Assembly: GCA_963804165.1 (NCBI GenBank) | Contig: CAWDPO010000045.1 | Coordinates: 160,001-224,000, forward strand | Reading direction: 5' to 3' | Length of the DNA stretch: 64,000 nt | Source: an uncultured delta proteobacterium | GTDB taxonomy: Bacteria; Desulfobacterota; Binatia; UBA9968 | Notes under the pieces: generated by a model | The model's database searches: none | What the model was told of the DNA's origin: nothing | Seen by the model: only the letters and a program-made list of their open reading frames with translations | Translations under genes and position numbers: made by a program | Shown here: positions 3,790 through 44,281 of the stretch, one piece after another | How positions within the stretch are numbered: position 1 is the first letter of the stretch | How the letters are laid out: each line of letters opens with the position of its first letter

Positions 3790-4945
3790 TTATCCTCCCC
3801 ACAATTCCTTCGTTGCGATGCGCGCGCCTTCGGCCATCGCCTGAAACTTTGCCCATCCGACTTGAGGATGCCCAACCCTTGAACCGATCCCGCAGTCGGT
3901 GCCGGCGATGACATTTTCCCGACCCATGATTTTTCCGAAGCGCACCAAACGATCGGCGATCGCCCGGGGATGTTCGATAAAATCACTGTAGTGACCGACG
4001 ACGCCGGGAATGAAAATTTTACCGTCGGGAAACTTGACGTCATCCCACACACGCCACTCGTGATCGTGACAAGGGTTCGACGCCTCGACGGAATACGCTC
4101 GCGGCGCGCACTTTAAGAACCAGATCAATAATGTCTTCTAGCGGAATGTCGTATTTGTGCGGCCCGTGATAGCTGCCCCAGCACATGTGGAAGCGAATCC
4201 GATCGATTGGGAGGTCGCGCAGGCCGTGGTTTAGCGCGTCGATGCGCATCTCTTGGTATTTCCGATAATCGGCCACGGTCATTTCCGGGTGCATCTGCCA
4301 GGCGTCCGCCAAGTCGGGATCATCGATCTGCAGCACGAAGCCGGCGTCGACGATTGCCTTGTACTCCTCGCGCATGGCGTCGGCAATGGCGAACAGATAA
4401 GCCTCATCGGTCGGGTAATACTCATTTTTCATCCAGTGTTCCAAGGTGCCGGGCGCGATCGCCGGCAGAAAAGCTTCTTCATACTTTTTTCCCTGCAGCG
4501 CCGCTTTTAAGTTCGCGATGTCCGCCTTCACCTCGTCGTGGCCGACGTACTTGAGCGGCTCGACGCAGTAAAACACACGAGCGTGGTGGCCGATGGAAGT
4601 TCTGCCGCCACGGTTGAAATATTCGGTGAACTCGATCATATCGCGGCCAAAGATCGATGTCGGTTTGAAATCCGGACTCGCCGGCCGCTCAACGAATCCG
4701 CCAAGTCTTTCTTTGGTGTAGCGCGAAAAATTCGATTTCCCCAGTTCGCCGTCGTTGATAATATCGACACCGCATTCGATCTGCTTTTGCACGACCTCCG
4801 CCACGGCCTCCCGCGTACGGTTGGCGAGCGCTTTCTGATCGAACGGCTTACCCTCGTTTCTGGCCACGAGCATTTCCATCAAATCTTTCGGCCGCGCCAG
4901 GCTGCCCACGTGGGTCACGAGAATGCGATCAGTGCTTCGTTTCAT
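3790..4945 (-). CDS. Cobalamin-independent methionine synthase II family (single-barrel MetE-like), frameshift at ~4100
   Basis: Motifs THVGSL, DGE, QIDDP, HMCWG, VEASNPCH, IPGVV and AGTDCG (Zn ligands). One extra base joins ORFs 4040..4966 and 3790..4128. Confidence 0.88.
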
Positions 4946-4970
4946 GACAACTGCCCTCGCTGCCAATGGT

Positions 4971-5044
4971 TGGAGTAATGGAGTGCTGGAGTATTGGAGT
5001 AATGGAATTCGGAATTAGCATCACTCCAACACTCCAACACTCCA
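4971..5044. repeat. Inverted array of 8-mer tandem repeats
   Basis: TGGAGTAA TGGAGTGC TGGAGTAT TGGAGTAA followed by TCACTCCA ACACTCCA ACACTCCA. Confidence 0.85.
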
Positions 5045-5058
5045 TTTACCCTTTATCT

Positions 5059-6505
5059 TTACGAGCGTTTTTCCATGATGTATTTGATCAGAAACGGCCA
5101 GACTTGTGTCGCATCCGCGAGCATCTCGGCATAAATGCCGTTCTTGTCCGCTTTGCGCCAGGATTCGTTTTCCGAGTAGGTGCAACCCGACAAATGTCCG
5201 AAATGAGGCTTGTCGGGACAGATCCTCACGCCGTAGCTGAAGCGCCGGTTGGGAAACGTCGGGCCGAGCCGTTCGTTGATGATTTCGATCAATGGCGCGA
5301 CATTCTGCACGTTATTGCGCGGCACGCCGCCGCCGATGGAAAAGATGCCGAAGCGTTTCGTGCTCGTGACCAGGCGAATCAATTCTTTGCTGTCGAGCTC
5401 GAGATCCATCAGGATCGGCTTCCTGCCGCGCCGTCTGCGTTTCATATTGTGAATGTAAATATCGTTGCCCAGTTCCGAGTCGACGAAGGCGGGAACGAAC
5501 ACCGGCACGCCGTACTGATAAGCGGATTTTAAAATACCGCGCTCATTCGGATAGTTTTCCGCGAGGTGTTTACCGACGAGCTTGTTGAACGCAGTCGGGC
5601 TGAGCGTCTTTTTACCGTCGATTTTTTCAATCACCTTGCCGATCACTTCCTCAACGGTGTCGAGATTGGTCTCGGGCTCGAGCGTATCGGTCACGCGGTT
5701 GAGCTTGCGGCGCGCCAGCTCGGTGTCGTTGTACTTGGGATTATATTTATAATGCTTGAGCCCAATAGACGAAACCAAACCGTGGGCCATCAACGCGCCG
5801 GTGGACGAGATCGCGTGAATCAGCCCCCGTTCGATCATCTCGCAGATGATCAGATCCATCTTACCGACCGTCATAGCGCCGCTGACGGTTAGAAAGCGCT
5901 TGCAGCTTTTGTCGTTCACCATGGCTTCGAGCGCTTTGGCGCCGCGCGCGACTTGCGCGGCCAAGCCGCCGTAGGTTGCCAGTTTTGCAAGGAACGACTT
6001 CACTGAATCGCGTTTGTCGTTGATCCACTCATCGAGCGCAGCGTAGATCAACGGCATCACGTACCGCGGATCGGCGAAAACGGCATCCGGGAAATAGCCG
6101 TCGCGAATCTGACCGGGTCGCGCCATATCGAATGGGTTGATGAAGATCGCCCGCGCCGGTCTCTGATAGATCGCCTCCGCGTTGCGCTCGGAATAAGCGC
6201 CGACGACGATGACGTTTCCGCCGCGCTTTTTCCCGCGCGCATATTCGCGAAGGCAGCATGATTTGGCGACACCACTTATTCGTTACGAATCTTGTCAAGA
6301 GCAAGCCGAGCGGCGAGTCCGCGATGCCGCTATAGATGAGGATCGGTTTATCTTGCGCCGTCACCATTTCAAAAATCGTGTGGGCGACCTCGCCGAGCAT
6401 GCGCGCGCCGAAGGCGCAGTAGCGCATGGCGCTGACGATCTCGCCCACGCTGTTGCACTCTTGCAAATCGAGCGATCTGAGTTCTTCGAAGGGTAGTGCT
6501 TTCAC
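5059..6505 (-). CDS. Deoxyhypusine/homospermidine synthase family protein with an extra N-terminal DHS-like module, frameshift at ~6247
   Basis: Motifs TVSGAM, STGALMAH, PAFVDSELG, IGGGVPRN, LSGCTYSENESWRK and ADATQVWP. Removing one C joins ORF 6029..6553 to ORF 5059..6126. Start is GTG 6505 or ATG 6553. Confidence 0.85.
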
Positions 6506-6722
6506 GAAAATTTCTCGATGAAGTTTCTTCGTTTCGTAACACGCGGCTATCATTCAGTCAATTTAAGTTCGCGTGACAAGTGAACCAAGTCTGAGTTTTG
6601 TGATTCAATCTGCTTTTCGGAGACGCGCCAGTGTGGGACTGGCATCACGACCACGATCGAGCGCGCAATAGACCCATTCACGTTTGCAAGGGCGCGCGCG
6701 GACAGGAAAATAAAAACTGCGG

Positions 6723-7757
6723 TTACCGCAGCGCGGGCAATACGGACTTGGCGCAACGCTCCATGGACTTCAGCACTTTGTCCTGACTCAAGCCGCCGAA
6801 GTGAAACGTCAAACCGATGTGCGTCGTACCGACCACTTCGACGATGCGCTTGAGGATGCGCACGCAAGTTTCCGGGCCGCCGAAAACGCCGCGGCTGTCG
6901 CGCACCATCGCATCGTAATCCAAATGGCCGATCACACGCTCGTGGGCGGGCGTACCGGGAGCTATATTTTGCGCTTCGAGAGCAAAGCTGCGCCAACTAT
7001 GCCAATGCTCGATCACTTCGGCCCGCGCCTGGGCGTCGCTATCGCCGACGTAGACCGGATACATGGTGAAAATATCTTTATCGTCCACCTTGTGTCCATG
7101 CTCACGCAGCACGGTGCGATACATTTCCATCCGCGGCCCCTGCTCTTCGTTGGTGAAGATCCACGGCAGGGTCATCAGATGGTGGCCGCGCTTCCCAATC
7201 ATTTGAAAACTCTCCGGATCACGGTTCGCAGTGACGTAAATCGGCGGGTGGGGTTTCTGCCGGGGCTGCGGATAAACCCGCAGCTTGGGAAAATGATAAT
7301 GCTCTCCCTGCCACTCGAATTCGCCGCCGCTCCAGGCGCGTAGGATCACGTCGAGCGCTTCCGGCAGCCGCTTCTGTGCGGTGTTCCAGTCATAGCCAAA
7401 GACCGCGTACTCCGTCGGGTGCATGCCGCGTCCGGCTCCGAAATTCACACGCCCGTCGGACAGCTGGTCCACCATGGCGAATTCTTCGGCGATGCGCAGC
7501 GGATTGTGCATCGGGATGATCGACACCGCGGCGCCCAGACGCATACGTTTGGTGCGCTGGGCCGCGGCGGCGAGGATCACCGACGGGCTCGGCATCATGC
7601 CGCCAAAATTACGGAAATGGTGTTCGGTCACCCAAAGTGTGTCAAAGCCCAGCGATTCCGCCGCATCGAACTGTTCCAGCCAATGGCTGTAAACGTCGCT
7701 ACTCTCGCCATCCAATTCCGGAACATAGGTGTTGAGAATGTAATATCCGAATTTCAC
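6723..7757 (-). CDS. LLM-class (luciferase-like) flavin-dependent oxidoreductase
   Basis: Motifs WVTEHHF, HNPLRIAEEFAMVDQLSDGRVNFGAGRG and PRQKPHPPI. Confidence 0.93.
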   Translation of the reverse strand: MKFGYYILNTYVPELDGESSDVYSHWLEQFDAAESLGFDTLWVTEHHFRNFGGMMPSPSVILAAAAQRTKRMRLGAAVSIIPMHNPLRIAEEFAMVDQLSDGRVNFGAGRGMHPTEYAVFGYDWNTAQKRLPEALDVILRAWSGGEFEWQGEHYHFPKLRVYPQPRQKPHPPIYVTANRDPESFQMIGKRGHHLMTLPWIFTNEEQGPRMEMYRTVLREHGHKVDDKDIFTMYPVYVGDSDAQARAEVIEHWHSWRSFALEAQNIAPGTPAHERVIGHLDYDAMVRDSRGVFGGPETCVRILKRIVEVVGTTHIGLTFHFGGLSQDKVLKSMERCAKSVLPALR

Positions 7758-31385: not shown

Positions 31386-33383
31386 CTATTCAATCAGCTT
31401 TCTCGCGTCAAGGTGGATGAACGTCGCGCCGCGGTCTTTCGCCCGTTTCACCATGTCTTCCGTGCCCCCTGGCGCGTCGCCGGCGGCACCGTTCCAAAGT
31501 GCGATCAGCGTCAGATGATCTCGTGAAATATAAAGCGCATTGTGCAGGATCCAGAGATTGGCACGTTGCCAGATGTCGTAATCCTTCTTCGCCCGCAGCC
31601 AACGCGGTAATTGCTCTGAGTCCGAAAGTATTCTCGGCTTGAGCTTGTCGTAAAGCCGATCGAAACGATCCGCCCAGCCGGAGCCGCCGTCAGCGACGGA
31701 AGCCTTGATGTATTCGCCTTTTGGCAATACCAGATACATCAGGCTCGGGATCGCGAGCTCCTCGCAGACTTCATGAAATAGGATGTCGCCGCCGGACGCG
31801 CCGCCGGAGATTCCGAGTAGCTTCCCGTGCGCTTTTTCTTTCTCCATCCTCACAGCTTCGAGAATCATCGCCCGCGCATGCTTTTCCTTGGCAGCGGGAA
31901 AACGCGGCGTCTTGCGATCGGGAGCATCGACGCGGTGTCCAGTGAACAAGATTACGCGCGGCGGAGATTCTTGGCTTTGACCGGGACCGGCAACCGGCGC
32001 TATGTTTTCGAGCGCGGCTTGAATATTTTCTCTGAGGATCCCGAGACGTCGGTAAAGCAACATTTGTCGTCGCACGGCATCGCGCGCTTGCTCCGACGCG
32101 CCGGAAACCGCCTTCTTGTAGGCTTGGCCGACCCGATTCGGCCTGCTCGACGTCAAGCAGATCAGATCCGCGGTGCTGATCTCGACCCAAACATCAGTTT
32201 TGTCGATACGCTGTAGAGCCGTTTGCTTCGACTCGATCGCTAACCGGACGCCGGCGGCGAGATCGCTGCGCAACTCTTTGAGCTTTTGCAGCTTTTGTGT
32301 CGCTTCTTCCCTAGTATCAAAGCTATCCTCCCAGACGCCCGGCTGTACCTGCGCCAGCTCCGTCAACATAGTGACCATCGCCAATGCGTTGAGGCCCGAG
32401 TAAAAATGATTGCGGTCTTCGATGAAACCCGCGCGGTAAAGGTCGAAAGACTTCTCCAAATACGGCGAAGCGAGAGCCGACTTCTGCGCCACGTCCAATT
32501 CCGTCAAATTCGCCCAACTCTGCTCCCATTGATTTTTTGCGTTTCGTCCCATTAAGGCGCGAATCTCGGCGCGTTGGCCCGCAGAAATCTCCTTGTTCTG
32601 AAGCGCGCGTTCGACGGCTTGATCCGAGCTCACCAGATCGCCGTGCCGTTGAAAGATCGTGCCCAGAAGAATGTTTGCTTCCGCGTCCATATCGTCATAA
32701 TCGCGCACTGCGGTCCACGTGACCTTGGCGCCAGGCCAGTCTTTCAAGCGAAATTGCGCGTGGCCGACCAGACGTAAGCCGGCTGCGCGCCATGCAAAAC
32801 CGTCGACCTCCGCCGCCAAAAGCTGTAGGTCGCCACACTGTTTGGCTGCCTCCACCCTCTCGACCTCTTCGCGAAAATCGAGCGGAACGACCAGGACTTT
32901 GTTAGGATCGGCAGGCTCCAATCCGGGAAGCAGTTGGAAAATCGGGCTATCGGCGTTCTGCGAGTCCAAGGTTGTTTTGAGCGCGGCAGCGAGGATGTCC
33001 ACAGCGCCGCCCGGACTCTTGGCGTCATAAGACAAATAGCGATCGGTCTTCAGATCAAACGGCACGTCCGTTTCTCGAGGCATACCTTCACTGTCTACAA
33101 TAGATTTGATGAGGAACGTGCGTTTATCTCGCAAAGCATGGCGAATGCCCAATTCGTAAAATACATTGGCGTTATGGATCGAGATATCGGCGATGACGAG
33201 ATCGGCGATGAGCAGTTGTTCGAACATGTCGGCGCGGATGTTTCCTTGCTGGATAAACCGCCCCGTGGTGCCGCCCCTCAAACCCGCCCGGTCCATGGCC
33301 GGACGAATGAGATCGTTTTCGACGCGGTCGAAGTCGATTCCACTCTTGGTACCGAAGGGACGTACGATAAACACGTTCAACAT
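31386..33383 (-). CDS. Multidomain protein: NDT-like (deoxyribohydrolase) domain + DUF4071/TPR region + SLOG domain
   Basis: N-terminal FIVRPFG..ADLVIADIS.HNANVFYELGIRHAL..PFD; central TPR helices with YSGLNA; C-terminal FTGHR, GGASGGD, WQRAN and ALWNG..GGTEDMV. Confidence 0.8.
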   Translation of the reverse strand: MLNVFIVRPFGTKSGIDFDRVENDLIRPAMDRAGLRGGTTGRFIQQGNIRADMFEQLLIADLVIADISIHNANVFYELGIRHALRDKRTFLIKSIVDSEGMPRETDVPFDLKTDRYLSYDAKSPGGAVDILAAALKTTLDSQNADSPIFQLLPGLEPADPNKVLVVPLDFREEVERVEAAKQCGDLQLLAAEVDGFAWRAAGLRLVGHAQFRLKDWPGAKVTWTAVRDYDDMDAEANILLGTIFQRHGDLVSSDQAVERALQNKEISAGQRAEIRALMGRNAKNQWEQSWANLTELDVAQKSALASPYLEKSFDLYRAGFIEDRNHFYSGLNALAMVTMLTELAQVQPGVWEDSFDTREEATQKLQKLKELRSDLAAGVRLAIESKQTALQRIDKTDVWVEISTADLICLTSSRPNRVGQAYKKAVSGASEQARDAVRRQMLLYRRLGILRENIQAALENIAPVAGPGQSQESPPRVILFTGHRVDAPDRKTPRFPAAKEKHARAMILEAVRMEKEKAHGKLLGISGGASGGDILFHEVCEELAIPSLMYLVLPKGEYIKASVADGGSGWADRFDRLYDKLKPRILSDSEQLPRWLRAKKDYDIWQRANLWILHNALYISRDHLTLIALWNGAAGDAPGGTEDMVKRAKDRGATFIHLDARKLIE

Positions 33384-33933
33384 GGCGATGCCTTTCGACG
33401 ATTTGTCTGCTCACGCTGCTTTGTTGCTCATGCTCGCGTGTCTTAAATATCTCTCCCAAATTCGCGCCGTGAGATCGAACATCGGCGGGAACTTGCGCTT
33501 GCCCACCGCAGTGCAGGCGCGATCAAGCTGGAACGAACTGCCGGCGCCGAGCACTGCTTTACGCGTCGTCCCCGCGTCGTCCAGCAAGTGCTTGTCGCGC
33601 GCGAAATTCGGACACCCTCATGTCTCCAGGTATGAAAACCTAAGTATCATTCATTTGCTGCGCGCGCTCAACCGTAGATGCGCTGATCTACAATCCCAGA
33701 GCCGGTCGCATTATCGCGACGTCGAATTGCGGTGTCGGGCTCCCGTCACGGCCACCAAGGTCTTCTGTTAATCACGATTTCGCCGGCGATCAATCGGAAT
33801 AACGATGATCCTCGCGGGCGGAATGAACCGGCGCGTAAATTCGCTGATTGACAGCAACCCCGAACCAAAGGTATTGGAAGCACACAGTCGTCGGGATCGA
33901 ATTGAGCTATTAACCGTCAGGAGGGAGTACCAA

Positions 33934-35334
33934 GTGAACGCACAAAAGATCTTTTCACGCTTATGTACGGGCTGTTTGATGGCGATTCTTGCTGCCGCCA
34001 GCGCGTTCGGCCAGCCGCAGATTCTCGGCGGAGCGAAAGAGCGCCAACCCGGCTACGGCGAAATGGAGAACTTCACGATTCTCTCTTACACCGATCTCAA
34101 CGGCTGGGATCAAGCTGCGGAATTTCGCGTCAGCAAGGATGGCAAGCATGCCTACGTATCGAACTACCAAGGTTTCAGCATCGTCGATGTCAGCGATCCC
34201 GCCCGGCCGAAAGTGATTTCGCAAGTCAAGAATGATCCCAGCGTGCAGAGCCAATACATCGACGTCCTGGGAAACATTCTCGTGATAAACCAGGACGGGG
34301 TTCGCGATGAGAAGATCAAAACCTGGGACGGCGGTATTCGACTCTTCGATATCAGCGATCCCGCCAAGCCTCGCGAAGTGGGTTTCTTCAAAACCGATGT
34401 TGCGCCGCGGCGTGGCGTCCATGGATTTTGGCTTCACGAGGATCCAAAGCAAGGAAAATTTGCTTTCATCGCGACGACCAAAGAAGGCTACTACGACAAC
34501 ATTCTGATGATCGTCGACATCACCGATCCCGCCCAGCCAAAAGAGGTCGCGCGCTGGTGGTTTCCGGGGCAATGGACCGCCGGAGGAGAAAATCCCGGGG
34601 AAAACTGGGTCGAACCCGACCGCGGGCTGCGTGAAGGGTTGCCCAAGATCTGGGTCGCTCTGCATGATATCACCGTTTACAAAGACCGCGCCTATCTCGC
34701 TTACCGCGATCAGGGCGTAATTATTCTGGATATTAGCGACGTGCGTAAGCCGACCATGATCAGCCAGATCAAGTGGTCGCCGCCCGAAGAAGGTAACACC
34801 CACAGCATCGGTATCGTTGTCCCATCCCACGGCGGCAGACCCGATATCATCGTCGCTGGCGACGAATTGGTCCGCCCCGAACATTGTCCATTTGGTTACA
34901 TGCACGTCATCGACGTCCGCAACGAGAAAAATCCGGTTCAGATCTCTACTTTCCGCCTGCCCCTGAACAGGTTTTGCCCGCCCGATCGGCCCGGTCGCCG
35001 TTTTGGCATCCACGATGTCGAGCGGATGATAAAAGGGAATATCGTTTTCAGCGCCTGGGAAAATTCCGGCTTTTGGGCCGTCGATATATCCGATCCGCAT
35101 CAACCGAAAGCCGTCGGTCATTTCGTGCCGCCGGTATTCCGCAAAGTCAACTCTGACGCCGGTCATGCCGACGACGTTTTCGTCCACGACAACGGCTTGG
35201 TCTTCTTCAGTTCGTCCGACCCGGGTGGCGGCTTTTGGATCACGCGACATACGCCAGGGGTGAAGGCCACTGTCGAGTGGACACCCGATAATAAAGGCGT
35301 AAATGTAAAATATGAAAAGCGGCCCGAGAATTAA
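33934..35334 (+). CDS. Exported LVIVD-repeat beta-propeller protein
   Basis: RBS GGAGGGAG, GTG start, signal peptide ending AFG-Q. Six repeats such as SIVDVSDPARP, LFDISDPAKP, IVDITDPAQP, ILDISDVRKP, VIDVRNEKNP and AVDISDPHQP. Confidence 0.88.
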   Translation: MNAQKIFSRLCTGCLMAILAAASAFGQPQILGGAKERQPGYGEMENFTILSYTDLNGWDQAAEFRVSKDGKHAYVSNYQGFSIVDVSDPARPKVISQVKNDPSVQSQYIDVLGNILVINQDGVRDEKIKTWDGGIRLFDISDPAKPREVGFFKTDVAPRRGVHGFWLHEDPKQGKFAFIATTKEGYYDNILMIVDITDPAQPKEVARWWFPGQWTAGGENPGENWVEPDRGLREGLPKIWVALHDITVYKDRAYLAYRDQGVIILDISDVRKPTMISQIKWSPPEEGNTHSIGIVVPSHGGRPDIIVAGDELVRPEHCPFGYMHVIDVRNEKNPVQISTFRLPLNRFCPPDRPGRRFGIHDVERMIKGNIVFSAWENSGFWAVDISDPHQPKAVGHFVPPVFRKVNSDAGHADDVFVHDNGLVFFSSSDPGGGFWITRHTPGVKATVEWTPDNKGVNVKYEKRPEN

Positions 35335-35740
35335 CGCCAAACTCTGTCTTATTTTACTGCTATTCGGCGTCTTCCATTCCCTACCGGCGTTTGCCGGCCA
35401 CGGCGTGGAAGACACCGTCGACAACTTAAGCGCCGATCGCGTCAAGCAGCTCATGGACGCCGGAGAAAAGCTGGTGTTCATCGATCTGCGCCCGGCGAAG
35501 GAGTATCAGGAAAAACGTCTGCCCGGCGCGCGTTCGATTCCTCTCGCCGAAGTCGCAAGTCGGTTCGGCGAAATTCCCAAGAGCGGAAGAGTGGTCCTTT
35601 ATTGCGACTGCAAACCCTACGACGCCGCAGACCGCGCCGTGTTTTTGGAATATCGCGGTTATCGAAATATTTTCATCATGCCCGAAGGCTTCGCCGGCTG
35701 GGTCAAACGCGGCTATCCGCTGGAAACTGCCCGTCGCTGA
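35312..35740 (+). CDS. Exported rhodanese-like domain protein
   Basis: Signal peptide ending AFA-GH; motifs FIDLR, RLPGARSIP, LYCDC and GFAGW..GYP. Confidence 0.88.
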   Translation: MKSGPRINAKLCLILLLFGVFHSLPAFAGHGVEDTVDNLSADRVKQLMDAGEKLVFIDLRPAKEYQEKRLPGARSIPLAEVASRFGEIPKSGRVVLYCDCKPYDAADRAVFLEYRGYRNIFIMPEGFAGWVKRGYPLETARR

Positions 35741-36099
35741 TGCCGCGATCTTGGCTTTCTGCGACTTTTATCCTGCTGCTTGCGCCGTCGATGGTCTCGG
35801 CTCATGCCTATCTCGTCAAGTCGGTGCCGGCGCAACGCGCCGTGCTTTTTCGCGCTCCCGCTAAGATCCAACTTTGGTTCAACGAGCGCTTGGAGCCGCG
35901 CTACTCTTCCTTCACTTTGAGCGACGCCGCGGGCAATCCGGTCGAGATCGGCAACTCAGAAGTGCCCAGCGATGATCCCAAACAAATCTCCGCATCGATC
36001 AAAAGCCTCCCCGCCGGGCGCTACCTGATCAAATATCGCGTCCTCTCCGTCGACGGCCATGTGGTTCAAGATAAGTTTCCGTTCACCATCAGGCAATGA
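35740..36099 (+). CDS. copC: Periplasmic copper-binding protein CopC
   Basis: Mature N-terminus HAYLVKSVPA, motifs FNE and SVDGH, no Met-rich loop; start overlaps the upstream stop (TGATG). Confidence 0.92.
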   Translation: MPRSWLSATFILLLAPSMVSAHAYLVKSVPAQRAVLFRAPAKIQLWFNERLEPRYSSFTLSDAAGNPVEIGNSEVPSDDPKQISASIKSLPAGRYLIKYRVLSVDGHVVQDKFPFTIRQ

Positions 36100-38135
36100 G
36101 TGAGCTATCGGCAGTCGTTCGCTTCGTTCATCTGACCGCTGCCGTGCTGCTTGCGGGTGGCTTTGCCTTCGATCTGCTGATCGCGGGCCCGGCGTTTGCG
36201 CGTAACCGCCCGGATGGCAAATCCCATTACCCGGATTTTTTGACATTTCAGGTTCGCCTCGCGAGATGGTACGTAGTAGTGGAATTCATCACCGCCATGC
36301 TCGCCCTCTGGCTGCAGACGGCCAGCGTGAGCGAATTGTCCGCGGGTGCATCATTCTCTCGCAGCGCCACCTTCACTCTGCTGGTGGAGACACAGTATGG
36401 AAAAGTCTGGCTAGTCCGGATGGTGCTACTGCTTGTCCTCGCAACCGTCATCTTCAGCGCTGTCCGCAAACGTAGCGCAGAAAATAATGTTGCCCTCCAA
36501 AGCTCAGGCTTCGTACTGAGCATTTGCTTGCTGGCATCGTTGGCTCTCGCCGGCCACGCTGCCGCTGGCGAAGGCATCGCGTTGCTGTTACTGGGGGCAG
36601 CGGACGCGTTTCACTTGCTGGCAACTGGTATCTGGTTGGGTGGATTGATACCGCTCGCGGCTCTGATGCGTCAATGCGTTCGACAACCTAATGCCGCACT
36701 CTTAGAGGTCGGGAGAGAAGCGACGCGACGTTTTTCCAAAGTAGGAATCGTAACCGTCAGCATTCTTATCGCCACTGGCGTCTACAATGCCTGGAATTTG
36801 GTCGGCGGATTCGCAGCACTGTTCGGAACACGCTATGGCAATCTCTTGCTGATCAAAATGGGCGCTATCATTCCCCTACTGTGCATCGCGGCCGTGAATC
36901 TTGTGCGGCTCAAGCCGAAAATTGTCGAAGCGCCACAAGCCCAGCCCGAAAAGGCAAATGCCTCTCTAAAGCAACTGACTCGCAATGTGATGATCGAAGC
37001 CGTGCTCGGCATATCCATCTTGCTCATCGTCGGCCACATGGGCGTCACACCGCCGGCCCGCCATGTCCCGCCCGACTGGCCGTTTTCGTTTCGTTGGGAT
37101 TGGAGCGTTCTCGACAAAGCGCCAAAGGCGCGTGCGGAAGTCGAGCGTGGCATGATATGGGCGGGAGTCGGTGCAATTGCGCTGATCACGGCTCTCACGC
37201 GCCGGCGCCGGCGAATCTTAGGCGCGGTTATCGGATTCGGCGCGCTCGGATATGCTAGCAACACAGTTCACACTGCGGTTTCGATTGATGCCTACCCGGC
37301 AACTTACAAGCGGCCCGCTGTCGCTTATCACGCGATCTCTGTCGCTAACGGTCGCATGCTGTATCAAGAAAGCGGCTGCATCGCCTGTCACGGACCCAAC
37401 GGCTACGGCGACGGGCCCACGGCACAAGATCTAAATCCGAAACCTGTCGACCTCACCGCCGCGCACGCCAACGCGCACACCGCCGGCGATCTTTATTGGT
37501 GGTTGAGTCACGGCGTCAAGCAATCCTCCGCCATGCCGGGTTTCAGCCAAAGCTTGAACGAAGAAGAACGCTGGGACTTGATCAACTACATGCGCGCGCT
37601 ATCGAGCGGCGACAAGGCGCGCTCGCTCGCGCCCGTGATCGAGGAGAATCCTTGGCTCGTCGCGCCGGACTTCGCCTATGGGACCAATGCCGGCGAACCG
37701 AGCACCCTTAAGGACCACCGCGGCGACAAGATCGTCTTGCTCGTGTTGCTCAATCTGCAGGACACTGAAAAACGATTGAAAGAAATCGCCAACGCCCTGC
37801 CGCGACTGCAGTCCGCCGGTGTCGAGATGATCGTGGTTCCAAAGGTGACCGATCAGCTTTTCGTTGCCAACAAGGCACCGGGCCTTATCGTAACGGAAGG
37901 GATCAGGGAAATCACGGAAACCTATACTCTCTTCGCTCGCTCATTCGCCGACGAGAATTTACTCTCGGCCACACCTCATGTGGAATATCTCATCGACAGA
38001 CAAGGCTACATCCGTGCGCGCTGGCTGCCCGCCGAAAACGACGCATGGCGCAAAAGCGAGTCGCTCATGGCGCAAATCGATCTGCTGCGTAAAGAGAAAC
38101 CCCGCGCCCCCGCACCCGACGAACACGTGCACTAG
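36096..38135 (+). CDS. copD: CopD membrane domain fused to cytochrome c and a Cys-less thioredoxin/peroxiredoxin-like domain
   Basis: CopD motifs RFVH, TQYGKVW, AGHA, HLLATGIWLGGL, RRFS and YG.LL.IK; heme motif CIACH with axial AMP; APDF..YLIDRQGYIRARW; C-terminal EHVH. Confidence 0.88.
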   Translation: MSELSAVVRFVHLTAAVLLAGGFAFDLLIAGPAFARNRPDGKSHYPDFLTFQVRLARWYVVVEFITAMLALWLQTASVSELSAGASFSRSATFTLLVETQYGKVWLVRMVLLLVLATVIFSAVRKRSAENNVALQSSGFVLSICLLASLALAGHAAAGEGIALLLLGAADAFHLLATGIWLGGLIPLAALMRQCVRQPNAALLEVGREATRRFSKVGIVTVSILIATGVYNAWNLVGGFAALFGTRYGNLLLIKMGAIIPLLCIAAVNLVRLKPKIVEAPQAQPEKANASLKQLTRNVMIEAVLGISILLIVGHMGVTPPARHVPPDWPFSFRWDWSVLDKAPKARAEVERGMIWAGVGAIALITALTRRRRRILGAVIGFGALGYASNTVHTAVSIDAYPATYKRPAVAYHAISVANGRMLYQESGCIACHGPNGYGDGPTAQDLNPKPVDLTAAHANAHTAGDLYWWLSHGVKQSSAMPGFSQSLNEEERWDLINYMRALSSGDKARSLAPVIEENPWLVAPDFAYGTNAGEPSTLKDHRGDKIVLLVLLNLQDTEKRLKEIANALPRLQSAGVEMIVVPKVTDQLFVANKAPGLIVTEGIREITETYTLFARSFADENLLSATPHVEYLIDRQGYIRARWLPAENDAWRKSESLMAQIDLLRKEKPRAPAPDEHVH

Positions 38136-38158
38136 CAGGGGCGCGACTCATCGCGCCC
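38135..38158 (+). repeat. GTAG-like REP (GCAG variant)
   Basis: GCAG-GGGCGCGA-CTCA-TCGCGCCC directly after the copD stop. Confidence 0.6.
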
Positions 38159-38299
38159 TGAGAATCACCAACCCAAACACCTTGACGATAATCCGCCGGT
38201 GCGGCTATAAGCAGCAATCGATCGACAAGAATTCACCTAAGAATCGATGCCGGTGCAAACGCCATCCGAATCTCGCCTCGGTCGAAACGGAGGTCTCAC

Positions 38300-39835
38300 A
38301 TGGGAGCGAACTCTAGCAAACTGACTCGCCGGCAGTTTTTGCAAAAAAGCGCGGCTCTGAGTCTCAGCGGCTTAAGCCTCGCCTCGCGTCCGCGTTTGGC
38401 TCGCGCCGCGTCGAAGGAACGCGTCGTCGTATTCCAAGGCGTCGGGCTGGATTCGCTTCATCCCTACGCCTATAGCGGTGGCGGCATCAGCGGCATTTGG
38501 CAGCACGTGATCGAGCCGTTGATCGAAATGGATTACTCCCGAAGTGTATACGTCGGCGTGCTGGCCGAGTCGTGGGAGTTTCAAGGTAAGAAATGGATTT
38601 TCCATTTGCGCAAGAAGGTTCGTTTTCATGATGGCTCGCCGCTTACGTCCAAGGACGTGCTTTTTACCATCGATCGCATGATCAACGATCGTAAGAGCCT
38701 GCAAGCTTCCAACTTTGCCGAGGTGACCGGCGTCGAAGCTCCCGACGATTACACCGTGACGATCACGACCAAACAACCCAACGCGGTCTTGCTCGAACGC
38801 TTGAACAACCGCTTCATCGTCAGCCAATCGGCGACGGAAAAAAACGGCAATCAGCTCGATAACTACAAAACCGGCACCGGGCCGTACAAGCTGGTCAGCT
38901 GGCAGCGAGCTGGGAATTTAGTGCTCACGCGCAACGACGACTATTGGCGCGCCAAGCCGGAGATCAAAGAGGTTCTGTTTAAGACTGTCAAAGAGGAAGC
39001 GGCGCGCGTCGCCGGGCTACTAGCGGGCCAGGCGGATGCGATCAGCAATTTGCCGATCGAGGAAATCGAGCGTGTCGAAAAGAACCCGCGCACGCGAGTC
39101 GAACGAGTTCAGGGTTATCGCATGTATTTTTTGGCGATGAACGTGACCCACAAACCGTTCGACAACAAGCAGGTGCGCCAGGCTTTCAATTATTCCGTGG
39201 ACCCGACGGTCATCCTAAAGCATATTTTTGAAGGAAACGGTTACGCACTGAATGGTCCGCTGAGCTCGAACATGATCGGCTATGACCCGGCGATCAAGCG
39301 TTACCCTTATGACCCCAAGAAGGCCCGCGAGCTGCTCGCCAAAGCCGGCTACCCGAATGGTCTGGAGGTTAAGCTTTACCTGGCGCCGGACCGTCATTTG
39401 AAAGGCAAAGAAGTCTGCCAAGTGATTGCCCGCCAACTCGCCGAGAGCGGCATCAAAGTGGATCTCGTGCCGCAAGAGTACCCGATCTATTGGGGCAGAG
39501 ACGGCGTCAACGGCGGTAAATTGCCTTTCTATTATGCCGGCAGATCAGCCTACGACGCCGATACCTTTTACGACCAATATTTTCACACCGGGGTGACCAA
39601 ACGCACCGGCTACAGCAATCCGGAATTGGACAAGCTCATCGAGGAAGAACAGCAAACCGGCGATCATAAGAAACGCGTTGGAATTCTCCAGCAGGCCGGG
39701 CGTATCGTGATGGAAGACGCTCCCGTCGTGCCGCTCTACACGCTCGCGGAAATTTATGGCTTGGCGCGAAATATCATTTGGCAAGGCAATCCGAATAACG
39801 AAATCATTGTCGCCGATATGAAGATCAAGGGGTGA
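38300..39835 (+). CDS. Family 5 (DppA/OppA-like) solute-binding protein, TAT-exported
   Basis: TRRQFL, LAESW, FHDGSP, GTGPYK and VRQA; promoter TTGACG-N18-TATAAG at 38182-38211. Confidence 0.93.
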   Translation: MGANSSKLTRRQFLQKSAALSLSGLSLASRPRLARAASKERVVVFQGVGLDSLHPYAYSGGGISGIWQHVIEPLIEMDYSRSVYVGVLAESWEFQGKKWIFHLRKKVRFHDGSPLTSKDVLFTIDRMINDRKSLQASNFAEVTGVEAPDDYTVTITTKQPNAVLLERLNNRFIVSQSATEKNGNQLDNYKTGTGPYKLVSWQRAGNLVLTRNDDYWRAKPEIKEVLFKTVKEEAARVAGLLAGQADAISNLPIEEIERVEKNPRTRVERVQGYRMYFLAMNVTHKPFDNKQVRQAFNYSVDPTVILKHIFEGNGYALNGPLSSNMIGYDPAIKRYPYDPKKARELLAKAGYPNGLEVKLYLAPDRHLKGKEVCQVIARQLAESGIKVDLVPQEYPIYWGRDGVNGGKLPFYYAGRSAYDADTFYDQYFHTGVTKRTGYSNPELDKLIEEEQQTGDHKKRVGILQQAGRIVMEDAPVVPLYTLAEIYGLARNIIWQGNPNNEIIVADMKIKG

Positions 39836-41585: not shown

Positions 41586-41639
41586 CCCACAGTCGCAGCG
41601 GTTGAATTGCCCGGCCTAGCCGAGCCAGAGGAAGAATCC

Positions 41640-42920
41640 ATGCAGCTCGCTTTGGCGAATCATCCGATCACGGATTTACAGTTCGGTTCTGCAATGCGCC
41701 TTGATGGAACCGTGTTGATTGTCGACGCTGCTGCGTTGCGCGATCTTGTTCTCGAGGACAATTCCATCGTCAGCGTCGACTTTGATATCGTCCGTCCCGG
41801 CGAAGCCTGCCGTGCCGGACCGATCTTCGATGTGATCGAACCACGCGCGAAAGCCCCTAGCTCCGGCTCTGATTTTCCTGGCATCTTGGGAGCACCAACA
41901 ACGGCTGGCCTGGGCACCACTCACGTCCTCAAAGGCGGCGCAGTATCCGTCTTAGCCGAAATTTCTCCCGACCTGACGCGCAGCGCTACCGGCCGGGTGT
42001 TGGAGATGAGCGGCGCGCCCGCAGAGGCCAGCGACTACGCTGCGCTCACGCATCTATTGGTGATTCCGCACACCAAGGTCGGCATGGCGCGCCAAGCAAT
42101 CGAAAAAGTTTATCGCGTAGCCGGCATTAAAGTCGCTGTCGCGCTCGCGCGGATTGCGCTGAATAATCCTCCCGCAACTGTGCAAACTTTTGAGCCCGTG
42201 AGCCCAGTGGATAAGACGCGAGAAGGTCAGCCGCGCGTCGCCTATGTCGGGCAAATTTTTTCGCGCCAGCGCAAACCGGCGGTGGACGAACCGATTCTCT
42301 ACGGCGCCAACACTGACGGCATGCTGCCGGTCATGCTCCATCCCGATGAGTGGCTCGACGGTGCCGTCGTGCCATCGCTTCATTCCTGGTTCGGCGGCAC
42401 GGAGACTTATTTCTATCAAAACCATCCGATCATTCTCGATCTCTACCGTCGCCATCACGCGCGCGAAATCAATTTAGTCGGCACGGTCGCGACCATCGCC
42501 GGCTCGGACAACTTCGACCGCGAGCGCCATTGCCGCGCCGCCGCCAATCTCGTCAAATGGAACTTGCAAGCCGACGGCGCGGTGCTGTCGAAATACGGCG
42601 GCGGTTTGCCCCACGCCGATCTCGCCGAAACCGCGCGTCTGCTCGAAAACATGGGGATACGAACAGCCGTTATGGTATCCGACGTCTCGCGAGACCGGCG
42701 CGTAGAGTCCGCGCTGCTGTTCAACGTTCCGGAAGTCGACGCCATCGTATACAACGGCGGCAACGGCACGCAATGGCAGGTACCACGGCTCGATCGGATC
42801 ATCGCCGCAACGGCGGAATTCACTGAATTGCTCGCCGGTCCGATGACGATCGACGCCGCCAACATCGTCGGCGTAACCAATCAGCAAGGTGCATCGAGAA
42901 TGAGGTCGATGGTTTATTGA
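41640..42920 (+). CDS. Glycine/sarcosine/betaine reductase component B alpha/beta-type subunit (GrdE/GrdI family)
   Basis: Motifs DVIEPRAK..FPG..GTTHVLKG, LPRV-like QPRVAYV, HPDEWLDGAV, TYFYQNHPII..LY, ADGAVLSK.GGG.P.AD and DAIV. Confidence 0.88.
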   Translation: MQLALANHPITDLQFGSAMRLDGTVLIVDAAALRDLVLEDNSIVSVDFDIVRPGEACRAGPIFDVIEPRAKAPSSGSDFPGILGAPTTAGLGTTHVLKGGAVSVLAEISPDLTRSATGRVLEMSGAPAEASDYAALTHLLVIPHTKVGMARQAIEKVYRVAGIKVAVALARIALNNPPATVQTFEPVSPVDKTREGQPRVAYVGQIFSRQRKPAVDEPILYGANTDGMLPVMLHPDEWLDGAVVPSLHSWFGGTETYFYQNHPIILDLYRRHHAREINLVGTVATIAGSDNFDRERHCRAAANLVKWNLQADGAVLSKYGGGLPHADLAETARLLENMGIRTAVMVSDVSRDRRVESALLFNVPEVDAIVYNGGNGTQWQVPRLDRIIAATAEFTELLAGPMTIDAANIVGVTNQQGASRMRSMVY

Positions 42921-42921
42921 G

Positions 42922-42980
42922 AAGGCGAAAGGCATGAGGCGTGAGTAAGGATTCCGACTCTCGCCTCTCGCCTCATGCCT
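42922..42980. repeat. Inverted array of 7-mer repeats between grdE-like and grdB-like genes
   Basis: AAGGCGA AAGGCAT GAGGCGT GAG ... CTC TCGCCTC TCGCCTC ATGCCT. Confidence 0.75.
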
Positions 42981-42997
42981 ACTCTGAGGAGTTCAAG

Positions 42998-44281
42998 ATG
43001 CAAGTCGCACACTATCTAAACCAGTTCTTCGGTGGTATCGGCGCCGAGGAACACGCCGGTAGACCTCTAGAAATTCGCGACGGCGCAGTCGGACCGGGAA
43101 AGTTGTTGGAGTCTTCCCTCGGCGACGACGCGCGCATCATACTGACTTTTGTTTGCGGCGATAATTACGCGGTCGAGCATGAAGCGGAGTTGACCGCTGC
43201 GATATTGGAAAAGCTACGCGAAACACGCGTAGACCTGTTTGTCGCCGGCCCATGTTTCGACGCCGGCCGCTACGGCATGGCGGCCGGCGCACTCTGCCGA
43301 GCAGTTCAAACTGAATTAGGCATTGTAGCCGTCACAGCTATGAGCGAAGAAAATCCCGGCGTCGATCTTTATCGCGACGCGCTCTATATCATCGACTCCG
43401 GAACAAACGTCACCAAACTGCGAGACGTTGTCGACAAGATGGCCACACTCGGTAAAAAACTCATCGCCCACGAACCCATCGGCCTACCCGCCAAGGAAGG
43501 ATATTTGCGCCGGGGATGGCTGCGCGATCAGCTCGTGGAGAAGAGGGCCGCGGTCCGATTGGTGGACATGCTCGTTGCAAAGATGAAAGGAGAGCGCTTT
43601 GAGTCGGAAATGCCGCCGACTGCTTTTGCACCAGTGCCGATCCCTGCGGCGGTGAAAGATTTATCGAAAGCGAAAGTCATGTTGATCACCGACGGCGGGT
43701 TAGTTCCGAAAGGCAATCCGGATAAAATCGAGGGAACCGCCGCGACTCGTTGGGGTTCCTATAACATTGAAGGCCGCGACGATCTGCGCGCGGAAGACTA
43801 CGAAGTTTCCCACGGCGGCTACGACACAAGGTTCGTTCAGGAAGACCCTGATCGCCTCGTCCCTCTCGATGCGATGCGCGAGATGGAAAAGAACGGCGTC
43901 ATCGGCAAATTGCACGATGAATTCATTTCCACTTGCGGCCGTTCCAACCCGCTCTCGAACACGCGCCGCCTCGGTCGCGAGATAGCGGAAAAGGCCAAAC
44001 GAGACGGCGTCGATGCGATCATTCTCACCTCGACGTGAGGAACCAGCACTCGCAGCGGCGCTGCGATCACAACTGAACTGGAGAAGGCCGGCATCCCGGT
44101 GGTGCAGATTACCGCCGCGAAGCCGATCGCGAAGATGGTGGGCTCCAATCGCGTCGTCCTCGGCACCGGGATCGTACATGTCACCGGCGACGCGAAACTG
44201 CCGCCCGCGGAGGAAAAAGAGTTGCGGAGAAAACTGGTGCAAAAGGCACTGGACGCGCTGCAATCGAATGAAAAGCAGTAA
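42998..44281 (+). CDS. grdB: Selenoprotein B of the glycine/betaine/sarcosine/D-proline reductase family (GrdB-like), Sec at UGA 44036-44038
   Basis: HYLNQFFGGIG.EE.A, CGDNY, AGRYG, TDGGLVPKGNPD, HGGYD and DPDRLVPLD, then ILTST-TGA-GTSTRSGA..ELEKAGIPVVQ continuing in frame to TAA 44281. Confidence 0.92.
44050..44066 (+). promoter_or_regulatory. Bacterial SECIS element
   Basis: 17-nt hairpin TCGCAGC-GGC-GCTGCGA beginning exactly 11 nt after the UGA, with G in the loop. Confidence 0.85.

Follow-up and report, generated by a model that had tools for sequence, protein, structure and literature searches.

A periplasmic LVIVD beta-propeller encoded with a rhodanese and a CopC/CopD cassette: a candidate copper-dependent enzyme of uncultured bacteria

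A 64,000-nucleotide stretch of DNA from an uncultured delta proteobacterium of the Binatia (contig CAWDPO010000045.1, positions 160,001 to 224,000), the whole of which is called the window below, holds at positions 33934-38135 (+) a run of four genes with overlapping ends that encode an LVIVD beta-propeller, a rhodanese, CopC, and a fusion of CopD with a cytochrome c domain and a Cys-less peroxiredoxin (Prx)-like domain. The locus belongs to an uncharacterised, exported, and remodelled clade of propellers of the type of Sb-PTE, the haloalkylphosphorus hydrolase/phosphotriesterase of Sphingobium sp. TCM1, and combines it with a new set of partners. The pair of propeller and rhodanese is the conserved core of this set, and the propeller hub very probably binds metal. 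We tentatively favour the reading that the propeller is a periplasmic copper-dependent enzyme organised like thiocyanate dehydrogenase (TcDH). An earlier sequence-only reading had described four exported or membrane-bound products encoded by genes coupled through overlaps of 23 bp, TGATG, and ATGA, and both parts of this description hold: the overlaps are present, and each of the four products either begins with a hydrophobic signal-like segment or is a membrane protein, signal peptides here and throughout being assigned by eye.

The propeller and its hub

The propeller gene (33934-35334, +; 466 amino acids) begins with GTG, six bases downstream of a Shine-Dalgarno-like GGAGGGAG read from the sequence at 33920-33927 (+). 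The operon genes, all four, were compared with both Pfam and NCBIfam, and the larger open reading frames of 16440-54462 with Pfam; NCBIfam agrees with the Pfam names of the operon genes, with no equivalog cut-off reached. The propeller matches Pfam LVIVD (PF08309) over three stretches with 84.5 bits (cut-off 20.2) and carries a Sec-type signal peptide at about residues 1-26. An AlphaFold model built from a 27-row alignment (pLDDT 88, pTM 0.87) consists of four-stranded sheets, and Foldseek ranked Sb-PTE first among its structural relatives (5hrm, E 3.7e-16, TM 0.63), with generic WD40 propellers following. VIA-align likewise placed the Sb-PTE entry 5ioj first in length of alignment (356 residues) and in identity (21%; Z 29.6, rmsd 3.0), generic WD40 propellers tying with it at Z ~31 over ~300 aligned residues. 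By sequence, Sb-PTE was the only solved protein found (phmmer E 1.2e-8; profile search 6.8e-17 for 5hrm/5ioj), and relatives in the ESM Atlas fall into LVIVD or hypothetical clusters only. These results show the protein to be an exported seven-bladed member of the LVIVD/Sb-PTE superfamily.

The hub of the propeller is lined by E63, Q107/Y108, H163, H244/D245, H290, D310/E311, H360/D361, and D413/D414. Among homologues of 43-81% identity, Q107, Y108, H163, H244, H290, D310, E311, C318, C348, H360, D361, and D413 are identical in 27/27, with E63, H168, D245, H324, and D414 nearly invariant; C318 and C348 probably form a disulfide, and H411 of the HADD motif is kept in only 22 of the 27. The sequence-only reading had proposed a central metal site from His or acidic residues at equivalent blade positions in the motifs GVH, LHD, THS, GDE, IHD, and HADD. 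All of these motifs occur in the translation, and their equivalence is borne out by the strand starts of the AlphaFold model, in which the strands that begin at 161, 243, 289, 360, and 414 have hub residues at their first position or next to it. Following the repeat pattern, we read E63, Q107, H163, H244, H290, H360, and D413 as each lying at or beside the start of the inner strand of one of the seven blades, with H163, H244, H290 (joined by E311), H360, and D413 belonging to blades 3 to 7. That the propeller holds a metal site at this hub we consider very probable.

The rhodanese and the conserved pair

The second gene (35312-35740, +) overlaps the first by 23 bp and encodes a periplasmic single-domain rhodanese of 142 amino acids (Pfam Rhodanese, PF00581; 56.7 bits, cut-off 22.2). 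Its signal peptide (residues 1-28) leaves a mature N-terminus of Gly29-His30, and the catalytic Cys98 is accompanied by Cys100 in the loop LYCDC, C98 aligning in profile matches with the active-site loop Cys of the solved sulfurtransferases 1yt8 and 3tp9. The motif GHG[VI]E follows directly on the A-x-A cleavage motif; together with the LYCxC loop it is kept in 23/23 aligned orthologues (54-80% identity) and in all 60 distinct sequences compared, the invariant columns being G29, H30, G31, E33, C98, and C100 (23/23). The mature Gly-His N-terminus and the two Cys of the CDC loop, which had been noticed in the one sequence, are thus features of the whole group. To judge by the motif, the N-terminal amine and His2 form a plausible candidate Cu(II) site, which we liken to the copper peptide Gly-His-Lys. 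A complex prediction for propeller residues 27-466 and rhodanese residues 29-142 scored 0.00 in two runs made without controls, which speaks neither for nor against binding.

Neighbouring genes were searched by tblastn with the window's proteins at 40 loci of species-representative genomes and at 80 metagenomic loci, counting only those with enough downstream DNA; as many contigs are near-identical, the counts refer to contigs and not to independent events. Within the clade of at least 60% propeller identity (95 loci), the rhodanese follows the propeller at 74 of 80 loci, CopC at 49 of 68, CopD at 29 of 47, the heme domain at 25 of 42, and the last, Prx-like domain at 23 of 39. The complete gene set is present at 10 of the 40 genome loci, two of which, at 69% identity, are labelled Burkholderiales or betaproteobacterium, and locus L011 (74% identity) has the propeller with neither rhodanese nor copCD. 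These counts identify the propeller-rhodanese pair as the conserved core and copCD as a separable accessory cassette. The earlier expectation that the propeller is conserved together with its neighbours is therefore borne out for the rhodanese and holds in part for copCD, which is present in most close relatives, is not obligatory, and is absent in part of the clade.

Some loci show disrupted or duplicated genes. At L005, L014, L022, and L031 frameshifts break up the gene for the propeller, the rhodanese, or CopD, either as pseudogenes or through assembly errors, and L028 carries tandem LVIVD genes (3999-5675 and 6001-7509), the upstream paralogue of which differs, being longer and having an acidic His/Asp-rich tail; genes for a CHRD-domain protein and an amidohydrolase with a twin-arginine (Tat) signal come next to the tandem.

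CopC and the CopD fusion

The CopC gene (35740-36099, +; 119 amino acids) shares the A of its ATG with the last base of the rhodanese TGA (TGATG) and matches Pfam CopC with 80.3 bits (cut-off 23.3), the NCBIfam CopC score of 76.2 falling under the cut-off of 95. Read by eye, the mature protein begins HAYLVKS, carries the DGH motif within SVDGH, and contains no Met and no Cys; it is, by these sequence marks, of the Cu(II)-only type that had been assigned to it before. The association of a missing Met-rich motif with a lack of Cu(I) binding comes from E. coli YobA (PMC8689200).

The CopD fusion gene (36096-38135, +; 679 amino acids) overlaps the CopC gene by ATGA. Its membrane domain (residues 1 to ~335; 36096-37100, +) matches Pfam CopD with 82 bits (cut-off 32.1) and NCBIfam NF033808 (CopD) with 186.2 bits, just under the cut-off of 195, over residues 5-320 and profile positions 4-294 of 295. 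The following part (37101-37625, +) comprises a conserved linker (residues 336-405), which includes another hydrophobic segment, and a monoheme cytochrome c domain (~406-510; Pfam Cytochrom_C 45.3 bits, cut-off 21.3, residues 416-502), which holds the HANAHTAGDLYWW motif. Its heme motif CIACH occupies residues 428-432, with C428, C431, and H432 invariant in 13/13 relatives. The last domain (residues 511-679; 37626-38135, +) has a thioredoxin/peroxiredoxin fold as judged by a profile of 10 orthologous domains, the weak matches of which to solved thioredoxin-family and Bcp-type peroxiredoxin chains (best E 6.7e-5) indicate likeness at the level of the fold only; its AhpC-TSA score of 16.4 bits lies under the cut-off of 26. 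None of its 169 residues is a Cys, here or in 13/13 relatives, so that a peroxidatic Cys is lacking, and the protein ends in EHVH, of which H677, V678, and H679 are invariant in 13/13. The fusion of CopD to a CxxCH heme domain and a Cys-less redoxin-like domain ending EHVH had been recognised correctly in the single sequence. Two stretches invariant in the fusion family, H-A-x-x-H-T-x-G-D-L-x-W-W in the heme domain (residues 457-469) and the tail APAPD[DE]HVH (residues 671-679), are candidate extra metal sites. The architecture of CopD, cytochrome c, and Prx-like domain is common, with 585 database proteins at E <= 1e-5, and no published description of it was found in the parts seen of the literature matches listed.

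The cassette also occurs apart from the propeller. Five genomes that have the propeller without adjacent copCD contain an above-cut-off CopD match elsewhere, in four of them within an open frame of 681-740 amino acids. Three such unlinked sites were examined (in genomes G002-G004), all of them CopD-cytochrome c fusions, one with a recognisable AhpC-TSA domain and two with CopC upstream. An Amidohydro_3 gene stands directly upstream of the unlinked CopC/CopD-cytochrome c module at L122 (G003:C19; 8415-9917 and 5730-7946, both -) and at L123 (G004:C12; 9397-11199, 8515-9285, and 5740-7773, all -). Amidohydro_3 genes are likewise found beside propeller homologues at L025 (742-2469), L028 (8495-10351), and L038 (888-2777); signal peptides are present in the products at L123, L025, and L028, and none is seen at L122 and L038. 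A second kind of metal hydrolase may share the copper cassette, the role of which may lie in copper uptake at large or in supplying more than one exported metalloenzyme.

Copper-related genes in other clades

In the clade at 50-60% identity, from genome records labelled Alphaproteobacteria, the propeller gene follows hemE, a hemJ-like gene, and rho, and has other partners. A small exported His-rich cupredoxin-like protein is encoded after the propeller at 10 of 12 loci; it carries the motifs HLHGYD, H-H-H-G-G, and a C-terminal EVHP, and one member matches Cupredoxin_1 weakly (E 8e-5). A membrane protein of ~510 amino acids and of no known family follows at 7 of 9 loci, with a predicted mature N-terminal His in 8/8 complete N-termini (A[QHE]A before the cleavage site and HA[FY]GERYDLP after it); a profile-profile comparison with CopD detected no relation (probability 0.7%). 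The two proteins, which may be a new copper-handling pair, are encoded at L021 (7421-9354), with equivalents in L016, L018, L019, L020, L106, and L113. By tblastn, no rhodanese lies beside the propeller at any of 12 loci of this clade or of 9 loci of the clade below 50% identity, and in the latter none of the partners known from the window or from the alphaproteobacterial loci does so (0/9).

Of the 11 loci below 50% identity, the three long ones (L029, L030, and L034; 39-44% identity) lie in metal islands. At L029 (3108-7290, ~44% identity) the propeller gene (+) follows merA (-) and merR (+), the MerR equivalog scoring 169 bits against a cut-off of 151. At L030 (986-13220, ~44% identity) genes for a cytochrome c, a CueO-like oxidase, and a DsbD_TM protein precede the propeller, and merR, merT, merP, a gene for a GDCC-motif protein, a merA-like gene, and a gene for a copper-type ATPase follow it, while at L034 a multicopper oxidase gene comes before the propeller and genes for a CopA-type ATPase and CusF come after it. 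In three clades, then, the propeller family is found in the company of copper-related genes, each time of a different set.

The nature of the metal and the role of the locus

Under the favoured reading, which taken as a whole we hold tentatively, the propeller would be a periplasmic metalloenzyme that receives its metal after Sec export, copper being the likeliest one. CopC would take up Cu(II), CopD would move the copper, and the heme domain would move an electron, either reducing CopC-bound Cu(II) or accepting electrons from the propeller enzyme. The propeller would oxidise or cleave a sulfur compound, such as a thiol, sulfane sulfur, or a thiocyanate-like substrate, and the sulfur atom would pass to Cys98 of the rhodanese, forming a persulfide there; alternatively, the rhodanese might pass copper to the hub by way of its Gly-His/CxC residues. 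The occurrence of Sec-type signals in the window's clade and of twin-arginine signals in distant members fits metal insertion outside the cytoplasm. The parts of this reading differ in strength. For copper as the relevant metal of the hub the chances seem to us even, and the combination of a copper cofactor with sulfur chemistry is doubtful. Quite improbable is the fullest version, in which a hydrolase-type hub has been re-tooled, among soil bacteria of an abundant clade, into a new periplasmic copper (or copper-sulfur) redox centre, with the rhodanese (Gly-His Cu(II) site and CxC) as a dedicated maturation or sulfur partner, a heme-driven CopC/CopD feed, and unrelated but functionally equivalent partners in the alphaproteobacterial loci.

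A number of findings weigh against copper, the first group of them concerning the hub itself. A profile search of 1.84 billion representatives returned 26,313 proteins at E <= 0.001, of which 451 reach E <= 1e-30, and 809 database clusters match the propeller at E <= 1e-5. A score above 650 bits is reached by just two full-length representatives, and the full-length proteins next in line (380-500 amino acids) drop to ~200 bits, a gap that sets the propeller subfamily well apart, as a clade of its own, within a very large family. In a wider alignment of three subfamily members and their 20 next relatives (23 diverse rows), H244, H290, and E311 are conserved in 23/23, H163 and D414 in 22/23, and H360 in 20/23; the His-lined hub is therefore a trait of the superfamily and does not by itself single out a copper site. 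No signal peptide is seen in many of these more distant proteins, which are probably not copper enzymes. At positions 105, 107, and 363 about half of the 23 rows have additional His, and at 361 and 413 they have Asn. In the window's subfamily, by contrast, position 105 varies (Q/N/H/S), 107 is Gln (27/27), 363 is E/D/Q, and both 361 and 413 are Asp. The hub of the window's clade thus keeps four His and one Glu and has become His-poorer and carboxylate-richer, a harder and more acidic site by its residues, which tells against copper without being decisive. The title of the PDB entry of the Sb-PTE structure names a 'binuclear manganese center', and searches found no sequence-level link to a copper propeller: a propeller-profile search of PDB sequences gave no TcDH chain at E up to 1, and Pfam, NCBIfam, and the PDB profile search showed no relation to NosZ or methanethiol oxidase.

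A second group of adverse findings concerns the cassette. The propeller and rhodanese occur without copCD at L003, L007, L022, L076, L077, and L079, and L044-L046 retain only a CopC remnant. At L007, L022, L076, and L079 an opposite-strand ring-hydroxylating dioxygenase gene takes the place of copCD and is followed by SBP_bac_5 and DUF255 genes as in the window; L003, from a genome flagged as unpublished, supplies one of the six pair-only loci and one alignment row, and no claim stands on it alone. An Amidohydro_3 gene on the same strand precedes two of the three unlinked modules, and the window's genome contains one clear CopD only, which may therefore serve general copper uptake. The proposal of a cuproenzyme supplied by copCD thus keeps the copper genes of three clades and the precedent of TcDH on its side and has against it a hub inherited from a superfamily that includes the Mn-titled Sb-PTE.

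The main rival to the favoured reading is a periplasmic hydrolase resembling Sb-PTE, with a non-copper binuclear centre (Mn, Zn, or Fe) acting on an ester, lactone, or thioester, a possibility that we rate as somewhat unlikely. The rhodanese would then have a role on the substrate side or an unrelated one, and CopC/CopD would be a general uptake module placed downstream by chance. Such an enzyme is suggested by Sb-PTE being the only solved relative at the sequence level, by the hub residues and Cys pair shared with it, by the conservation of the hub across the superfamily and its Asp/Glu-rich form in the window's subfamily, and by a copCD cassette that is separable and found also beside Amidohydro_3 genes. 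Table 1 of PMC13191619 moreover counts an LVIVD protein, cadB1, among catabolic genes. Three different copper-related gene sets with three clades are nevertheless hard to explain by chance, and a simple hydrolase offers no reason why its gene should be so closely coupled, by overlap, to that of a rhodanese. Nor is the hub a copy of the Sb-PTE centre, since the position of the bridging carboxylate is variable and two further His are replaced.

The occurrence of homologues at 39-44% identity inside mer/cop islands (L029, L030, and L034) raises instead the prospect that propeller and rhodanese serve periplasmic defence or homeostasis for thiophilic metals (Cu, Hg, Ag), binding or oxidising the metal or supplying sulfane sulfur or thiols that sequester it. 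The locus would then be nearer to one of resistance or homeostasis than to an enzyme and its suppliers. This we think unlikely, but the resistance role that had at first been set aside has to be brought back into consideration by these islands. CopC and CopD were originally named as resistance proteins according to their Pfam descriptions, and the CxC and N-terminal Gly-His of the rhodanese could bind Cu. Against defence, proteins of the CopC/CopD type are now treated as putative importers (PMC8689200), and Pfam finds no efflux pump, multicopper oxidase, or metal-sensing regulator beside the window's gene (16440-54462). The alphaproteobacterial locus sits among the housekeeping genes hemE, hemJ-like, and rho, and resistance islands hold much unrelated cargo.

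A NosZ-like His-bound copper-sulfide cluster, with sulfide supplied through the rhodanese and electrons through the CopD-fused heme, was part of the sequence-only reading and would suit a seven-bladed propeller with one conserved polar hub residue per blade and a rhodanese and heme domain in its operon, yet it is very improbable, since only 4/7 equivalent hub positions are His, the subfamily has gained carboxylates rather than soft ligands, Pfam detects no cupredoxin/CuA domain in the propeller, no nos accessory genes turned up in the scanned flanks (which were not searched for them by name), and the rhodanese-less clades keep the same hub, which cannot then depend on rhodanese-delivered sulfide.

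Genomic surroundings

A 506-amino-acid antisense open reading frame (33961-35481, -) spans the propeller gene and is a shadow frame with no sign of being a real gene, similar frames being present in relatives' loci. An Rfam scan of 33200-38400 gave no match at E up to 1, and a promoter/terminator scan found little more than shuffled sequence would lead one to expect (4 where 2.1 were expected, and 8 where 5.5 were). Among 53 loci compared, the 350 bases upstream of the propeller could be aligned with two near-identical loci only. Further upstream, a 665-amino-acid protein with a TPR-S (sensor) domain is encoded between an NMT1-type binding-protein gene and the propeller gene (31386-33383, -); at L007, L046, and L076 the binding-protein gene directly precedes the propeller, and the 665-amino-acid gene of the window therefore looks inserted.

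Genes for an SBP_bac_5 and a DUF255 protein come next after the operon. At 41607-44038 (+), genes standing side by side gave matches to component B of glycine/sarcosine/betaine reductase (PF09338) and to GRDB (PF07355), and the PF07355 match is full-length in a listed open reading frame with no in-frame stop, so that this would be, if real, a Cys rather than a selenocysteine form of GRDB. Organosulfur catabolism, as a theme drawn from nearby NMT1-type binding proteins and a luciferase-like monooxygenase, was set aside as a weak hint only, these genes being generic and on other strands. A second LVIVD gene of the same genome (C35) lies among unrelated genes (isochorismatase, GST) and offers no functional lead. 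In public sequencing runs, DNA word shares of <=0.16 were found in soil, sediment, or unlabelled metagenomes, with no RNA run among the matches listed.

Significance

If copper is the metal, the propeller would represent a new cuproenzyme family common in uncultured soil bacteria (809 clusters), with maturation partners, among them a rhodanese whose N-terminus may bind Cu(II). The CopD-heme fusion could then show how CopC-held Cu(II) is reduced for transport, and the unrelated alphaproteobacterial pair may do the same job. If copper is not the metal, these propellers are still the nearest relatives in nature of Sb-PTE, an enzyme that evolved recently and degrades flame retardants, and would give a lead to its ancestral function. 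The recurrent homologues in mercury and copper islands suggest an unrecognised periplasmic component of metal stress responses.

Comparison with known systems

NosZ has seven hub His, and the equivalent window residues E63, Q107, H163, H244, H290, H360, and D413 include four; the C-terminal CuA domain of NosZ has no counterpart, as the 466-residue protein contains no cupredoxin or COX2-type Pfam family. Methanethiol oxidase/SBP56, which we take to be a periplasmic copper-dependent propeller acting on a thiol with copper-chaperone genes nearby, shows weak local similarity, and the window protein is not a member of its families, scoring 22.4 bits for PF05694 (cut-off 34) and 15 for MtoX NF052453 (cut-off 650). 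As for LVIVD proteins in the literature, another published one is described as surface-associated and possibly concerned with attachment, and a search of main texts for 'LVIVD' together with 'copper' gave four matches, three of them irrelevant by title or abstract.

Sb-PTE (PDB 5HRM, 5IOJ) is also seven-bladed with LVIVD-type blades and shares ~18-21% identity with the window propeller. Its residues 258, 389, and 407 correspond in hidden Markov model alignments to H163, H290, and E311, its residues 317 and 475 correspond by spacing and the wider alignment to H244 and H360, and its Cys pair is shared as C318 and C348. We take residues 258, 317, 389, 407, and 475 of Sb-PTE, with a bridging Glu-201, to be the ligands of its binuclear Mn centre; the ligand list and the binuclear Mn content are reportedly those of Mabanglo et al. 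2016. The bridging Glu-201 falls on window position 105, which is Q/N/H/S in the 27 rows and aligned with low confidence, and the neighbouring His of Sb-PTE is replaced in the window's subfamily by the invariant Gln107 (27/27). We know of no rhodanese or CopCD partners of Sb-PTE.

The rhodanese finds its best NCBIfam match in rhodanese_LYCAU (NF041203; E 9.5e-14), of which it is not a member, scoring 51.2 bits against a cut-off of 115. With that family and with periplasmic rhodaneses such as PspE it shares a single domain and a catalytic Cys followed two residues on by a second Cys, the position of which is selenocysteine in the LYCAU (seleno)protein family; the invariant mature Gly-His N-terminus is specific to the window's group among the rhodaneses compared. 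The CopC and CopD of the window resemble E. coli YobA-YebZ and B. subtilis YcnJ in combining a His-Asp-His Cu(II)-only CopC free of a Met-rich motif with CopD (PMC8689200), but the window's CopD also has a C-terminal periplasmic cytochrome c and a Cys-less Prx-like domain ending HVH.

A parallel in organisation is TcDH of Thioalkalivibrio, which did not appear among the matches listed by Foldseek or VIA-align, though the two may share a fold. According to the parts seen of PMC5744179 and PMC9456337, TcDH, likewise periplasmic and seven-bladed, holds three Cu ions in the tunnel of its propeller, has adjacent and co-induced copC/copD genes and a cytochrome c acceptor, and releases a sulfur atom as product; in those parts no rhodanese gene is mentioned among the cluster genes. 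In the window the heme domain is fused to CopD. Both systems combine a propeller gene next to copCD with a c-type heme, and a sulfur product like that of TcDH could go to the rhodanese encoded beside the window's propeller.

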